From a virus (lineage: Duplodnaviria; Caudoviricetes), in the IMG/VR virus record IMGVR_UViG_3300022936_000003, positions 1 through 45,249 of that record: DNA of 45,249 bases; one strand, written 5' to 3'. The position numbers and the translations under genes were made by a program. Of the stretch, positions 30,940-45,122 are shown piece by piece (the first letter of the stretch is position 1; each line of letters opens with the position of its first letter). The notes beneath the pieces were generated by a model that had not been told where the DNA came from, searched no databases, and worked only from the letters and a program-made list of their open reading frames with translations.

Positions 30940-32499
30940 TTACCCGGCGACCCGTTGCACGGCAAGCCAAGTCCCGAGGACGTGGGCGATGGGCTCTTGC
31001 CGACAAAGCTGATGGATGCCGTCAAGCGTGTCCCTGACATCGACGCTAGGTTCGTCGTGGTCGTCGTGGTGAACGATAAGGCCGCCGCCGTTACGACGAA
31101 TCAGCACCGTCGCCAGTTCATGGTCCGAGGCGACCGCTACGGCGCCGTGGTCGCCGTCGATGAAAACCACGCCAGCTTCCGGCAAGTCGTCCATCGTCAA
31201 GTCAAAGGAGCCGCGTCGAATGATGACCAGCATGAACCTGGGATCATCCAGCGCCAGATAGCCCGGCCGGTCGGGAACCTCGCGCCGCTGGACCGACTTG
31301 GCGAACTCATAGGACGGCGGGACGTCGATTCCGATGTAGCGCTCAAGGCTCGGGACGTTCCGCAGAATGGCCTTTGCCGTCCGCCCGGTGTTGCAGCCGA
31401 TTTCGATCATGCAACGGGGCTTAACGGACCTGACCAGCGTAATCAGGGTCTCCAGTTCGCCGGGGTTCATGAAGTTGGTCGGCAGGCCCGTCAGGTCGAT
31501 GTCGGGGTCCGGTTCCACGGTGATGTTCGGCCGCACCTTGGACCGGCCGCCCAGGACGTATGGTTCGGGGACGGACTTCGGCGCCGACGCGGCAAACAGG
31601 GCCAGCCGGTCCATTTCGGCGGGCATGTCGATTCGCTTGTCGCAGTCGTGGTCATGTCGGAAACAGTTGCAGGCATTCACCGGGGCGATGGGGAGCGTCG
31701 GGGTATAGACCGCGCCGGCCGAGAACGATGTCCCGTCCTCATAGCCGCCAGAGACCACCACCGTAGGCGTCCCTACAGCCTGACCCAGGACCGCCGCGAA
31801 CCCAGGCGAACAGAAGACCAGAGACGCCATTTCGGTCAGGGCCGCGAGGGTTTCGAAGTCCAGTTCGCCGTTGTGCAACTCGACATGCCCGGCGCGGTGA
31901 GGGATGCCCGCTTGGCTGGGCGCCAGCCATTCCTTGCCGGGGACCAAATCGGCCACCGACACGATGAAGAAGTCGTCGCGGATGGACTCGATCAGGTTTT
32001 CATAGTGGCCGTCGTCAGGGTTCCGCGCCTTGCACCCGCCCCACTCTGTCCGCTCGACCAATGGGCGATAAATCATCAGAGGCTTGTCGGGCTTCCACTT
32101 GCGAATCCATGCATCCGCCTTCTCGCGCCACGCCTTCGGGATCGGGAGCCGGAAATCACCGACAGGGACGCCCGCGACCTTGGACATGGCGCCGAGGACC
32201 GAACCCTCGTCACGCACGACCTGGGGCGGGTAGTGCTGGCGCAGCACGTCGCACGAATGCGGAGGGCCGCCACGGACGAACAGGCCCCGGTTCGCAGCCG
32301 CGTTCTTAGCCTGGGTCCGAAGGCTCGACCCCTTGTTGACCAGCTTCAGCTTCGGCCCGACGAGGTCGTGATAAATCTGCGGCCACGGGGTTTCCAGCCA
32401 GACCTCACGGCCCTTCGCCAGATAGGCGCGGACAATGCTGCGCTGATGGATGCAATCCCCGAGTCCTTGCATGCCCACGATGTAGAGAGGACGCGCCAT
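30940..32499 (-). CDS. GT9-like (GT-B) glycosyltransferase fused to class I SAM methyltransferase
   Basis: GMQGLGDC N-terminal motif and LAAL...LGQAVGTPTVVV; C-terminal IEIGCNTGRTA and VFIDGDH. Confidence 0.8.
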   Translation of the reverse strand: MARPLYIVGMQGLGDCIHQRSIVRAYLAKGREVWLETPWPQIYHDLVGPKLKLVNKGSSLRTQAKNAAANRGLFVRGGPPHSCDVLRQHYPPQVVRDEGSVLGAMSKVAGVPVGDFRLPIPKAWREKADAWIRKWKPDKPLMIYRPLVERTEWGGCKARNPDDGHYENLIESIRDDFFIVSVADLVPGKEWLAPSQAGIPHRAGHVELHNGELDFETLAALTEMASLVFCSPGFAAVLGQAVGTPTVVVSGGYEDGTSFSAGAVYTPTLPIAPVNACNCFRHDHDCDKRIDMPAEMDRLALFAASAPKSVPEPYVLGGRSKVRPNITVEPDPDIDLTGLPTNFMNPGELETLITLVRSVKPRCMIEIGCNTGRTAKAILRNVPSLERYIGIDVPPSYEFAKSVQRREVPDRPGYLALDDPRFMLVIIRRGSFDLTMDDLPEAGVVFIDGDHGAVAVASDHELATVLIRRNGGGLIVHHDDHDEPSVDVRDTLDGIHQLCRQEPIAHVLGTWLAVQRVAG

Positions 32500-32782: not shown

Positions 32783-32815
32783 ATGTAAACATTATCCCGG
32801 CCGGAATGTAAACAT
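32783..32815. promoter_or_regulatory. operator pair ATGTAAACAT (32783-32792, 32806-32815)
   Basis: two exact boxes 23 bp apart inside the late region. Confidence 0.85.
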
Positions 32816-33492
32816 CACTTATAGAGGCGGAAGGCCGTCATTAGCGACTCGGCGCCCAACTCCAGCGCATAGACCCGCTCCGTCCCGACCGCGTCCCGAT
32901 TGGCGAACCAATAGCCGGTCAGGAGGATCAGGGCATTGGCGAGCGCGGCGGGCAGGACGGTTTCGGGGTCGTCGCCCGCGCCGGTCTCGTCGGGGATGTC
33001 AAAGCCCGCCCTGAACGTGATCTGCACGGCGTCGTAGGCCCGCCCCAGCGACGGGAGCGACACGCCGTCGTTCAGGTGGATCAGGCCGCCTGTGGGCAAC
33101 CGCTGGACGCGATAGTCGGAGCCCGGCAGGTCATCAAGCGTGATTTCGCCTTGGCCCAGGTAGTCGATGCTATCGACCTCACGGAACGGGACGCGCTCCA
33201 GAATGGCCGGCGAGCAGCAGGACCACCGATAACGCTCACCGGCGCAGCCACAGGCCTGGGCGATGCACCAATCCGCCATATCGACCCGGAATGTCGTCGG
33301 GCGAAGCGTCAGGTGCGTTTGCTTCTCCACGAACTCGATGGCCGCGATGAACGCAGCCTCGACCGCGTCGTCCTGCGCGTCGATGCCGTCCTGATCCATC
33401 CCGCCGTCCTCAATCTGAAGGCGCGACTTCACCTTTTCCAGCGGGATCGGGAGGCCCTGCGAAACAGCGATGCGGGTATAGTTCACAGGCAA
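32815..33492 (-). CDS. head-tail connector (gp6-like)
   Basis: PIPLEKVKSRLQI, AVQITFRAGF, LPAALANALILLTGYWFANRDAV. Confidence 0.9.
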   Translation of the reverse strand: MPVNYTRIAVSQGLPIPLEKVKSRLQIEDGGMDQDGIDAQDDAVEAAFIAAIEFVEKQTHLTLRPTTFRVDMADWCIAQACGCAGERYRWSCCSPAILERVPFREVDSIDYLGQGEITLDDLPGSDYRVQRLPTGGLIHLNDGVSLPSLGRAYDAVQITFRAGFDIPDETGAGDDPETVLPAALANALILLTGYWFANRDAVGTERVYALELGAESLMTAFRLYK

Positions 33493-34103
33493 TCCTCCAG
33501 CGGACGCTTTTCGAACGCGGTCAGCGATGAATGCGGCGAAGCGTTCAGAACTTCAACCCCTAGAGCCGACAGCATAGGGGCCGCAGCGTCTAGATCGGCT
33601 CGCCAGCGCGCCATATTCAGCGCCGAGGGGTTGTTCAGCCCGCCGCCGTGCTTCCCATGCCAATGCACACCACGGGCCAGCGACAGGTCGAACCCGACGA
33701 GGACGATGCGCGACGCCCCAGCCTGGGCCGCGAGGTTCACCGCCTGAAACCCGCTGTTGCCGCCCGCGCCAATCTCTCCGAAGCGGTCGAAGAGCATGAC
33801 GCGCATCCGAGCCTCGACCTTGATGCAACACAGGCCCATCGCGGCGGCCCCACGGGCGTCCTGTGTCACCTTCAGGCCGGGGAATGCCCGCGCGCCCGCG
33901 TCAGCCTTCCAGTAAGCCCCATCGGCCGCGTAAAGCATGTCCGCCCATGGCGCGAGGCGGTGCGATGCGTTGATGACGATACAGGCCGCGCCCGACGCCC
34001 TTACGATGTCGAGCGAGGCTTCCGAGGCGGACGGGCCGGACGCGACGATGACGACACTGCGCCCGACCCAGCGGGGGAACCACTCGGGGGCGCCGAGGTA
34101 GGG
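33483..34103 (-). CDS. glycosyltransferase-like domain (GT29/DUF115-MAF-like), probably reached by -1 frameshift from the upstream ORF
   Basis: VVIVASGPS, CIVINASHRLAPWADMLYAAD, GGNSGFQAVNLA, IVLVGFD, HWHG, VLNAS; no ATG/GTG/TTG between TAA 34137-34139 and Met 33938. Confidence 0.75.
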   Translation of the reverse strand, partial: PYLGAPEWFPRWVGRSVVIVASGPSASEASLDIVRASGAACIVINASHRLAPWADMLYAADGAYWKADAGARAFPGLKVTQDARGAAAMGLCCIKVEARMRVMLFDRFGEIGAGGNSGFQAVNLAAQAGASRIVLVGFDLSLARGVHWHGKHGGGLNNPSALNMARWRADLDAAAPMLSALGVEVLNASPHSSLTAFEKRPLEDCL

Positions 34104-34285
34104 TCCGGCGTGGACGCCTTCGCGCGTGCTGGGGCCTTACCGGCGAGAATGGTGATTCGGCCATTCTTGACCCACTCCTCCGCCAACGCGACGGGAATAT
34201 CCGTCTCATAACCCGCCTGCCGGCGTTCGCCATCAACCGGGTTCATCGTCCTGTTCAGGCGGACCCGAACTGTCTTCGTCGCCAT
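34001..34285 (-). CDS. small virion-type protein (post-capsid position)
   Basis: AGGAGG SD; RQAGYETDIPVALAEEWVKNG followed by a low-complexity tail. Confidence 0.75.
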   Translation of the reverse strand: MATKTVRVRLNRTMNPVDGERRQAGYETDIPVALAEEWVKNGRITILAGKAPARAKASTPDPTSAPPSGSPAGSGAVSSSSRPARPPRKPRSTS

Positions 34286-34294
34286 AGTGACCTC

Positions 34295-35173
34295 CTAGAG
34301 CAGGTGCGTCCTGCGGTCATTCTTCACGATATTGTCCAACGCCCACAAGGGTCGAAGGTTTGAAAGCGCCCAAGCGGCCCGGCATTCGGGGTCGTCGCGG
34401 CTTTCGAACGAGAACGACGACAGCGGTTGGATATGATCGATATGCCATTCGCCCCGGTTTTCCCACGTCATGCCCGGCAAAAACTGGCGCTCCAGATGGC
34501 GCATCAGGTCCGCCAAGGTGTAGCCGACGATTTTCTCCCACCGATAGCCTGCCTTGCCCAGAACAAGAGACTGCCGAACGCCCGCCGACATGCGCTCATT
34601 GATTTGAAACTCGGGATTTACCTTGCGGCGCTCACGGGACTCGGCCTGATAAGCCCTGATGCGATCCGGGTGACGGGCGGCATACCGGGCCGCGCCTTTG
34701 CGCTGCGCCTCCCGAAGGTGCGGAAGGGCGTTTTTCTTCTGAAGGATTCGGCAGGCGGGACAGTAGCAGGAGCGTGCCCCCGTCTTTGCGAACGGTTCGG
34801 CGCAGTGCTTGCACGGGATGATGGTCCCGACGAAAACCGCCCCGCTCGCCAGCCGTTTCGCCAGCGACGCGGCGTTCGCCTTTTCAAGGGCGATAACGCT
34901 ACGGCAGGGGACGCAGTATTTCGTCTTGAGACTGCCCCGGATGAATACCGCGCCGCATCGGCCACAGGCGATTTCAGTCCCTTTGACCTGGGCCACGCCC
35001 CGCGCCCTGCGTCGCTTCTCTGCCACAACCCGGTCACGCGCGCGCCGCTCTATCAGGAAACAGCCGGGGCATTTCTTGAACTTGCCGTCGCTGAAGCGAG
35101 CCGTTCTGTGAAAGCCGCATTGCGGGCAGGCCGCTTCGTCGGTATCGGTCGTGCAGGTCATCGGGCGGTCCAT
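34295..35173 (-). CDS. zinc-finger-rich HNH endonuclease (probable homing endonuclease)
   Basis: multiple CxxC pairs; C-terminal HLERQFLPGMTWENRGEWHIDHIQP...NLRPLWALDN. Confidence 0.82.
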   Translation of the reverse strand: MDRPMTCTTDTDEAACPQCGFHRTARFSDGKFKKCPGCFLIERRARDRVVAEKRRRARGVAQVKGTEIACGRCGAVFIRGSLKTKYCVPCRSVIALEKANAASLAKRLASGAVFVGTIIPCKHCAEPFAKTGARSCYCPACRILQKKNALPHLREAQRKGAARYAARHPDRIRAYQAESRERRKVNPEFQINERMSAGVRQSLVLGKAGYRWEKIVGYTLADLMRHLERQFLPGMTWENRGEWHIDHIQPLSSFSFESRDDPECRAAWALSNLRPLWALDNIVKNDRRTHLL

Positions 35174-35183
35174 TCGCTCGTTG

Positions 35184-35225
35184 AAATAGAAAGGCCCGCC
35201 GGACGCCAAATCCAGCGGGCCTTTC
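35184..35225 (-). terminator. intrinsic terminator after the major capsid gene
   Basis: GAAAGGCCCGC...GCGGGCCTTTC stem followed by TATTT on the minus strand. Confidence 0.75.
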
Positions 35226-35243
35226 GTCGTTTCTAGCCCAGAT

Positions 35244-36446
35244 TTACGTCTGGGGGAACTCGCCGTCGATGATCGCCTCGGGACGGTGAACGGCCATTGC
35301 GAGGCGTTCTTCACCCCGGATGACCAGCCTGTTGTGCAAAAAGTCGTCTTCCGACTCAGTGGCGATCTCGACCGCGATGCCTTCACGGTCGAAAATCTGG
35401 GCGGCGAGGTTGAAGGCGCCGAGCGTGAACTCGCCTTCGGTCTGGGCGGCGGTCTCGATGACCGGGCGCCCCCAGAGGGTCGGGCCGCGAAGGTTGCCGG
35501 GGTTCGCCCAGATGTAGCGATCCTCGTTATCCTTCTGCAGTTCGATCTTCTCCCAGTCGGTCGGGTGAAGAATGATGCCGCTCGTCGGGTAGTAGGCGAG
35601 CGAGACCTGGGTCATGGCGCGGCGGATGGTGTCGATGCGGGTGTCGCCGGCCTCGTTACGGGTGGTGTCGTAAGGGGTCGCGGCAGGCTTCAGGCCTTCG
35701 ATGGACTGGCCAGCGCCCGAACCGTTCAGCAGCGCGTCGTTCTCCACGAACTTGACGCCCCAGCGGAGGCGGAAGTCAATGTAGGAACGCAGCAGGGGAA
35801 CGTCCGCCAGAATCTGGTTCGTCGCCTTCACGAAGTGCGCGATGGTGCGAACCGGGGCCTCGGCGTATTCGAACTCGATGTCCGACTGCGGCTTTCGGGT
35901 GTTTTCGGTCACGAACCGGGCGGCGTTGGTGAAGCCCGTTTCGCGATAGTAGCCGACGACCTGTTTGTCCGTGCTTCCCGGCATCAGGAGGTCACGGATC
36001 AGCAGCGGCATGTCCGGTTGCTGGATCAGGCCTGGGCGATAGTCAGGCGACAGGAGGCGGCCACCATTACCTTCGCCGGTCGTGCCCGAGCCGATGACGG
36101 CGCCGAACGTGCCTGCGTCATGCCAAGAGCCCTTGGACTCAAAGCGGCCCTTCTGCGCCGAACCGTCGATGACGGCGGCGAACGACGGAGAGGCGATGGC
36201 GGCGGCGGCGAAGGCGATGCCGGCGATGCCCTTGGCCATGCCGCCCATCGAGCCGAGTTGGTCGGCGACCTTCTGCGACATTTCGACAAGCGAGGCATGG
36301 AGCTTCAGGCCAAGCGCCGACTGCTCTTGCAGGCCAGCCTTGATGTTGACCAGTTCCTCGGCGGTGGCGGCGGTAGAAGCGTCGAGCAGGGCTTGAATAG
36401 CCGCGTCGCGCTTTTCCAGTTCGGCGTTGATTTCGTTGATGTCCAC
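35244..36446 (-). CDS. major capsid protein, HK97 fold
   Basis: AARFVTENTRKPQSD, VRTIAHF, LLNGSG, LHPTDW, TLWGRPV, IRGEERLA. Confidence 0.95.
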   Translation of the reverse strand: MDINEINAELEKRDAAIQALLDASTAATAEELVNIKAGLQEQSALGLKLHASLVEMSQKVADQLGSMGGMAKGIAGIAFAAAAIASPSFAAVIDGSAQKGRFESKGSWHDAGTFGAVIGSGTTGEGNGGRLLSPDYRPGLIQQPDMPLLIRDLLMPGSTDKQVVGYYRETGFTNAARFVTENTRKPQSDIEFEYAEAPVRTIAHFVKATNQILADVPLLRSYIDFRLRWGVKFVENDALLNGSGAGQSIEGLKPAATPYDTTRNEAGDTRIDTIRRAMTQVSLAYYPTSGIILHPTDWEKIELQKDNEDRYIWANPGNLRGPTLWGRPVIETAAQTEGEFTLGAFNLAAQIFDREGIAVEIATESEDDFLHNRLVIRGEERLAMAVHRPEAIIDGEFPQT

Positions 36447-45092: not shown

Positions 45093-45122
45093 GCCGCAAA
45101 CCTCACCTTGCCGTCGTCGCCT

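Follow-up and report, generated by a model that had tools for sequence, protein, structure and literature searches.

A small gene in the head module of a tailed phage overlaps a transferase-like reading frame that lacks a start codon ahead of its conserved part, and a −1 ribosomal frameshift at a C_CCU tetramer very probably fuses the two. The frameshift and its products of 94 and 267 aa had been proposed in an earlier note from the sequence of this one genome, and the proposal is now supported by conservation across 77 clusters of related loci, by natural in-frame fusions of the same domains, by the point at which conservation of the −1 frame sets in and by slippery heptamers in other lineages. 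The sequences themselves show that the frames overlap, that the transferase frame lacks a usable start, that the motif is in phase, that the small gene follows the capsid gene and that natural fusions exist. The observation is real, and it very probably reflects programmed −1 frameshifting in a new form. Our preferred account, held with moderate confidence, is that slippage makes a fusion whose shared domain would carry a predicted glycosyltransferase to the phage head; head-directed glycosylation, taken by itself, has about even chances of being right.

Overlapping reading frames in the window

The stretch of DNA analysed (the window, 45,249 nucleotides, 65% GC) looks like a complete phage genome, because its first 100 bases recur at position 45122. 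Its minus strand, which carries all features given below, encodes in order terminase, portal, S49 protease, an HK97-type major capsid protein (35244..36446; the presumed binding partner or substrate of the system), an HNH or endonuclease VII-like protein (34295..35386), the 94-aa ORF and the transferase-like frame. These are followed by a head-tail adaptor gene that overlaps the 3′ end of the transferase frame (32815..33492), by a gene for a second likely glycan enzyme, which includes a methyltransferase domain, and by the tail genes. The positions claimed earlier for the ORFs, the stop codon, the motif and the hairpin are all present.

The small ORF (34001..34285) starts 5 nt after a Shine-Dalgarno-like AGGAGG (34291..34296), which overlaps the stop codon that ends the nuclease gene upstream, and matches phrog_8441 (E = 0.006) and the family profile (E = 1.1e-4). 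Its product has a folded domain of ~47 aa, which the short and long products would have in common (34145..34285), and then a tail rich in Ser, Pro and Arg. The Ser/Pro-rich stretch of the 0 frame starts where the earlier note had placed it, but looks to be largely a shadow of the overlapping transferase codons, because V-I-V read one base on gives S-S-S, a pattern seen family-wide.

Relative to the small ORF, the transferase-like frame is the −1 frame, and it is open from 34136 to 33483 (217 codons). Upstream it is closed by a TAA (34137..34139), which cuts off an out-of-frame GTG (34175-34173) at a position used as the start by gene callers in close relatives. The first ATG, GTG or TTG of the frame is at 33938, as had been observed, and this Met is residue 67 of the frame, whereas the match to phrog_4603 (E = 3.4e-43) already starts at residue 31. 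There is also a near-cognate ACG (34127-34125), absent from the earlier list of possible starts, 7 nt after a TAAGG. Because the transferase frame is start-less and overlaps the small ORF, a one-base backward slip very likely joins the two. From the slip site, the −1-frame domain, with a predicted fold of Maf/GT42/GT29 type, measures 205 aa (33483..34100), and the proposed fusion length of ~267 aa follows by arithmetic (62 + 205 = 267). Contigs of one sequencing run (depth 20) contained no assembly indel here, in line with the earlier reading, a check that is not independent because the run is probably the source sample.

Conservation of the frame relationship

Five locus scans gave 345 related loci after a copy of the window had been dropped (346 with the window); 328 of the 346 were anchored on the SGPS motif, with 235 clusters at 90%. 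A profile of the small domain, seeded only on 11 natural in-frame fusion proteins, was searched in six frames upstream of the transferase. The first round placed the small domain upstream in 66 loci, and in 66 of 66 it lay in the frame that needs a −1 shift. After four iterations, 117 of the 118 hits among the 328 anchored loci were −1 overlaps, one ended before the domain, and the remaining loci had no hit (200) or were too short (10). An overlap with the opposite offset never occurred among the 118 profile hits. Clustering of the −1 overlap loci at 90% left 77 clusters, one of which is the window; at 70% there were 52 and at 60% 26. None of these 77 clusters had an ATG, GTG or TTG within 30 codons of SGPS, and 66 of them had no such codon at all; where the small domain was absent, 120 of 149 clusters had one within that distance. 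The frameshift count is conservative, since 30 clusters had neither a profile hit nor a near start, and inspection by eye showed the same overlap in about half of them, 14 times with an in-phase C_CCT. In one locus (L049) the offset between a small-domain-like ORF and the transferase that it overlaps is the opposite one; an ATG stands 35 codons before SGPS, and the case may be one of a coupled start or of a +1 variant.

Natural in-frame fusions, which had been suggested as a further sign of the system, do exist. Among the best 120 of 1275 proteins matching the transferase domain, 12 were fusions by eye; 11 of them formed the profile seed, and the final profile recovered all 12, a result that is circular for the 11. 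None of the 328 anchored loci held an in-frame fusion. Fusions were seen only from the transferase side, because searches from the small domain gave short proteins: a long-protein search returned almost only these (19 hits of 92–129 aa), and 0 of 168 small-domain profile hits contained a transferase. Frameshift, stand-alone and fused forms were interleaved in a FastTree phylogeny of 156 tips (17 label changes, shuffled mean 53), from which we draw no order of events, since many nodes are weak and the tree carries no clade test. Of the frameshift loci, 60 of 66 had the end of a capsid gene no more than 1.2 kb upstream, compared to 7 of 103 stand-alone loci, and many of the genomes holding related loci are labelled Alphaproteobacteria.

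Predicted slip site

The predicted slip site is C_CCU at 34100..34103, read as GAC-CCT-ACC in the 0 frame. In the transferase phase, C_CCT was found in 55 of 77 clusters; the other two phases gave 0 and 3, and among stand-alone genes 3 of 120 had it (p = 6.5e-27). At 70% clustering it was present in 37 of 52 frameshift compared to 1 of 92 stand-alone clusters. Over a slightly wider range, 57 carry C_CCT, 38 of these at −22 or −20 codons, and the T of the tetramer is kept whichever −1 codon results (Phe 37, Tyr 16, Ser 3, Cys 1). Conservation in the −1 frame begins at the slip site, with invariant columns from its Pro onward. At 8 of the 57 site-bearing loci an upstream stop stands 1–3 codons before the slip site.

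C_CCT was missing from the −30 to −13 codon range in 20 of the 77 clusters. By reading, 15 of these 20 have a heptamer or an A_AAR or U_UUY motif within the open overlap, including A_AAA_AAG and G_GGA_AAR, a weak contrast across the 20 clusters given that alternative motifs occurred 16 times in phase and 11 and 9 times in the other phases. Other lineages have A_AAA_AAG, G_GGA_AAR or U_UUU at the same place. In E. coli, the accessible text of PMC4066793 reports six active tetramers (0.26–5.6% with the IS3 pseudoknot), including C_CCU as one of the weaker ones, and lists C_CCA_AAG among the three best heptamers (54%). In one clade (L110, L302, L345, L333, L346, L133, L173 and L337), the overlap retains Y-x-R-R-D-M, a motif characteristic of stand-alone post-capsid proteins, and A_AAA_AAG or C_CCU_UUR stands ~30 codons before SGPS.

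Hairpin and other possible stimulators

A predicted 3′ hairpin (34059..34093) follows the slip site after a 6-nt spacer. It folds in the window as claimed in the earlier note: alone, it reaches −22.3 kcal/mol (z = −2.9; 0 of 200 shuffles as stable), while contexts of 70–141 nt bring competing folds and z values of −1.06 to −0.15. The outer stem is kept in 10 of 10 distinct close-clade segments, as near-invariant sequence. Across the 57 loci, a hairpin at −20 kcal/mol starting 3–10 nt past the site was present in 51%, compared to 15% elsewhere in the same genes. A strong hairpin at the site was more frequent than in the same region of stand-alone genes (29/57 vs. 81/240, p = 0.004), but GC matching gave p = 0.07. 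RNAalifold on 15 sequences of one clade found 5 pairs and no two-sided change, that is, no covariation; a hand-chosen 17-pair structure was no better than shuffles, and predicted stems of different clades differ in register. The proposed joint conservation of tetramer and hairpin in homologues is thus borne out for the in-phase tetramer but weak for the hairpin family-wide, and a stimulatory role of the hairpin is plausible, not established. An upstream SD-like element 6–17 nt before the motif occurred at 21 of 57 loci, compared to 4–16 at six control offsets, a frequency below the 50% rule given in the accessible part of PMC4066793.

Transferase-like domain

The model of the −1 domain (pLDDT 95) favors the glycosyltransferase-type fold suggested earlier. 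In a fold search of 48,161 chains, the top match was Maf 5mu5 (Z = 14.6, rmsd 3.3, 181 aligned, 5mu5 residues 262–510), with further matches to the HPPK MptE (8sd5; Z = 12.2), SteA (Z = 11.7), a Campylobacter alpha-2,3-sialyltransferase of GT42 (Z = 11.1) and GT29 (Z = 9.3). Foldseek ranked dehydrogenases first with poor TM-scores and gave MptE, SteA and Maf a probability of 1.0 with TM-scores of 0.47–0.61. In Maf 5mu5 the catalytic acidic residues are 324 and 415, and the reaction is CMP-sugar transfer to Ser/Thr. We predict, from the model, a Maf/sialyltransferase-type glycosyltransferase. Maf proteins are described as placing nonulosonic acids, Neu5Ac or Kdo on Ser/Thr of flagellin, and the Maf domain as a modified GT-A related to GT42 (accessible text of bioRxiv 2020.06.03.131540).

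Six residues (D72, N127, G129, D150, H158 and N169) are kept in 100% of the 52 frameshift clusters, and conservation of the polar motif residues in frameshift loci equals or exceeds that in stand-alone loci. Judged by dN/dS values of 0.19–0.30 against 7 close relatives, the −1 domain is under purifying selection. Filing it as Maf was rejected: the Pfam PF01973 match is below the cut-off (23 bits vs. 34.6) and the full-length multi-domain chain is missing, so the comparison is limited to "works like". Sequence searches of the PDB with the small domain and with the transferase domain gave nothing useful, NCBIfam has no family for the short or the long product, and an Atlas search returned unnamed viral clusters as neighbors of the transferase and, for the small domain, matches under 0.9 that serve as a lead only.

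Small post-capsid domain

The small domain was modeled with a pLDDT of 80 as beta-beta-alpha-beta, a fold of the ribosomal L9-N or GINS-B type. In the fold search it came closest to GINS and L9 (Z up to 6.9; all matches below Z = 8), and the C-terminal domain of lambda gpFI (2lsm) ranks 26th, below both of these (Z = 4.9, rmsd 2.3, 47 aligned). The gene of gpFI follows the capsid gene in lambda, and its C-terminal domain is the capsid-binding half, the other half binding terminase. Position and fold of the small domain are consistent with, and lead us to infer, a tether to the procapsid. Filing it as gpFI was set aside, because 0 of 75 members matched Pfam FI at E = 0.01; 47 of these 75 match phrog_2616, and 8 and 7 match DUF7210 and DUF7302, respectively, weakly. 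The proposed frameshift system offers a function lead for DUF7210/DUF7302-like post-capsid proteins. The accessible text of PMC13595911 describes gpFI as a bridge between capsid and terminase.

The small-domain family has 1928 representatives, and the domain is also found as a separate gene. It is fused in frame to other enzyme-like domains in L119 (3605-4807), L300 (3605-4645) and P0222, and to a gp6 connector in P0243. L119 and L300 carry it twice, because one copy is joined via the frameshift and one is fused. The partner domains in L119, L300 and P0222 may be glycosyltransferases, as judged by eye or by likeness to the 32499-30940 protein of the window, with no Pfam hit.

Isolated phages

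The transferase domain matched 75 phage records, of which 11 were inspected. In D3, PMG1 and phi1 a small gene follows the capsid gene and the in-phase motif is C_CCA_AAG; in S20 a stop is followed two codons later by C_CCT_TTG; and Psp6 has the overlap and no start. PACT201 was set aside as an example, its record having several frame breaks in the region. Among the 11, a small domain upstream of the transferase is absent in P1, P7 (pmgN-pmgO), PAJU2, phiNP and CcrColossus. No frameshift is marked among the annotations shown for the inspected phages, and a −1 frameshift would account for truncated or wrongly started ones (D3 orf6.5/orf7, PMG1_0007/0008, S20 TVGG_00050/49 and Psp6_00047/48). 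The string "glyco" does not occur in the accessible text of the D3 capsid structure paper (PMC12749128).

Proposed mechanism and competing explanations

In the account that we prefer, most ribosomes would make the 94-aa product and a likely minority would slip back one base at 34103-34100 to make the 267-aa fusion. With the ribosome paused by the hairpin, the proline tRNA would move its pairing from CCU to CCC, and the long form would be made in a low ratio to the short one. The small domain may bind the procapsid in the manner of lambda gpFI, and the enzyme would move a nucleotide-activated acidic sugar of the host, of the nonulosonate or Kdo type, to Ser/Thr or to a glycan of head proteins, with neighboring transferase and methyltransferase genes completing the glycan. 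A more general version, which we put forward only tentatively, is that frameshift-dosed, capsid-homing glycosylation is a second widespread recoding site of tailed phages, in which a short gpFI-like tag coats the procapsid, the rare long form brings a Maf-type transferase that adds sialic-acid-like or Kdo sugars, and the tag is reused for other glycosyltransferases. If so, virion glycosylation would be common in proteobacterial phages and directly testable in D3.

The frameshift could also be real without the long form being a head glycosyltransferase, which we rate as rather unlikely. The long form would then be a structural or sugar-binding part of the virion, act on another target (the tail, a host surface glycan or DNA bases) or perform MptE-like pyrophosphate transfer. 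MptE and SteA, neither of them a glycosyltransferase, do have the same fold, yet the top match, Maf, is a protein Ser/Thr O-glycosyltransferase, and the polar residues are near-invariant. ORF010, the stand-alone homologue in PAJU2, is annotated "structural protein", and homologues lie next to tail genes in CcrColossus and away from head genes in P1; against this, the neighbors include further transferase-like genes, a GT-D in S20 and an annotated nucleotide-diphospho-sugar transferase in CcrColossus. Stand-alone homologues need no tether, and pmgO of P1 is non-essential according to the accessible part of PMC10695390.

Other explanations concern the frameshift itself. That the transferase has its own start, either an ATG or GTG formed by reading the conserved E/Q-W codons of the small gene out of frame or, in the window, the ACG after TAAGG, is very improbable. 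Among the matches listed, the 17 closest full-length homologues (P0003-P0020, P0008 aside) are annotated from just such an E/Q-W ATG or GTG, the window ACG has a plausible SD, and D3 has an in-frame GTG 22 codons before SGPS. However, the N-termini annotated in these 17 look unrelated and the extensions are not conserved as protein, and in the window and in L002 a stop separates the out-of-frame codon from the transferase domain. Moreover, 27 of the 57 site-bearing loci have neither a canonical start nor a near-cognate CTG, ACG or ATH codon, no start position recurs in more than 6, and an own start leaves the in-phase C_CCT unexplained. Transcriptional slippage adding one base at a C run would produce the same frame change, and two C5 runs do lie in the hairpin of the window, with C5 runs in the close clade too. 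This is less probable still, as the C runs are not kept family-wide, C_CCC is in phase in 1 of 77 clusters and other lineages have heptamers suited to tRNA re-pairing; known transcriptional slippage sites are usually longer A/T runs. Least probable of all is an assembly error or a decayed fusion gene. In-frame fusions exist, and the window is covered only by a non-independent contig, but the same offset appears in 117 loci, the dN/dS values are low, and the arrangement is found in the finished isolate genomes of D3, PMG1, phi1, S20 and Psp6.

Relation to known systems

Among phages, conserved frameshifts have been described chiefly in tail chaperones and as the source of capsid or tail extensions. 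The one proposed here belongs to the head module, recurs in 77 or more sequence clusters, relies mostly on the weak C_CCU tetramer and would create a fusion to an enzyme fold. It resembles the conserved −1 shift of the lambda-like tail chaperone G/GT (Xu, Hendrix and Duda 2004, via the accessible text of PMC3711429) in that a morphogenesis gene gives a short and a long product with a common N-terminus, and differs in its post-capsid gene, its tetramer and its enzyme-like extension. The G/GT site also lies between the tail tube and tape measure genes, and the window has a separate site of this type: towards the 3′ end of its tail chaperone gene (28464-27916) stands G_GGA_AAA (28008-27997), and the −1 frame is open up to the tape measure gene, as in an ordinary G/GT frameshift. 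Capsid or tail extensions by frameshift are reported for T7/T3, Lactobacillus A2 and Listeria A118, A500 and PSA (accessible text of PMC5009743). As proposed here, a minority of a head-module protein gains a C-terminal domain, and proline codons feature in PSA. In those systems, however, it is the major capsid or tail protein that is extended, often by Ig-like domains, whereas here a small accessory protein would gain a domain with a glycosyltransferase fold.

Compared with Maf, GT42 Cst and GT29 sialyltransferases, the likeness lies in the predicted fold and the weak PF01973 match, and the −1 domain is a single domain of 205 aa as opposed to the 632-residue chain of 5mu5, with 15% identity. 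The small domain may share with the gpFI C-terminal domain the type of fold, and it too comes after the capsid gene (60/66 loci, with the nuclease gene intervening in the window), but here it occupies the N-terminus, and nothing evident corresponds to the terminase-binding half of gpFI. Virion glycosylation is reported for mycobacteriophages such as Che8 (Freeman 2023, via the accessible text of PMC11256854). Phage glycosyltransferase genes are common to both cases, as would be glycosylated capsids; in the cited phage the genes lie near the 3′ end of the genome, the hosts differ, and the accessible text mentions no frameshift or tether. Should the enzyme act on the head, virion glycosylation would extend to proteobacterial phages, for which the long-studied phage D3 offers a direct test. 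We found no description of a post-capsid/transferase frameshift in the open-access literature, subscription papers and supplements aside, and no open-access papers on DUF7302, DUF7210 or phrog_4603; the accessible parts of the recoding surveys PMC5009743 and PMC3711429 and of PMC12749128 do not mention the system.

Neighboring genes

The likely partner glycan enzyme (30940..32499) combines an N-terminal phrog_6804 part, which we take to be glycosyltransferase-like from its GLGD motif only, with a Methyltransf_24 domain. A homologue of one or the other part lies downstream in 41 of 66 frameshift loci, and a PDB sequence search with the 32499-31600 part gave nothing useful. Directly 3′ of this gene, a second small ORF (~30841-30659) resembles the post-capsid domain (phrog_2616, E = 0.007), with no overlap seen. 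The HNH or endonuclease VII-like insert between the capsid gene and the small gene, probably a homing endonuclease, occurs in three distant loci: the window (35386-34295), L099 and L119 (1787-2791). Elsewhere in the window, the ORF of the terminase small subunit (42024-40744) is unusually long at 426 aa and has two Terminase_4 matches, a gene upstream of those for terminase encodes a collagen-repeat protein (43101-42115), and in the tail region a 946-aa protein (21583-18743) has a Kelch-type propeller with a weak NanM-like match.
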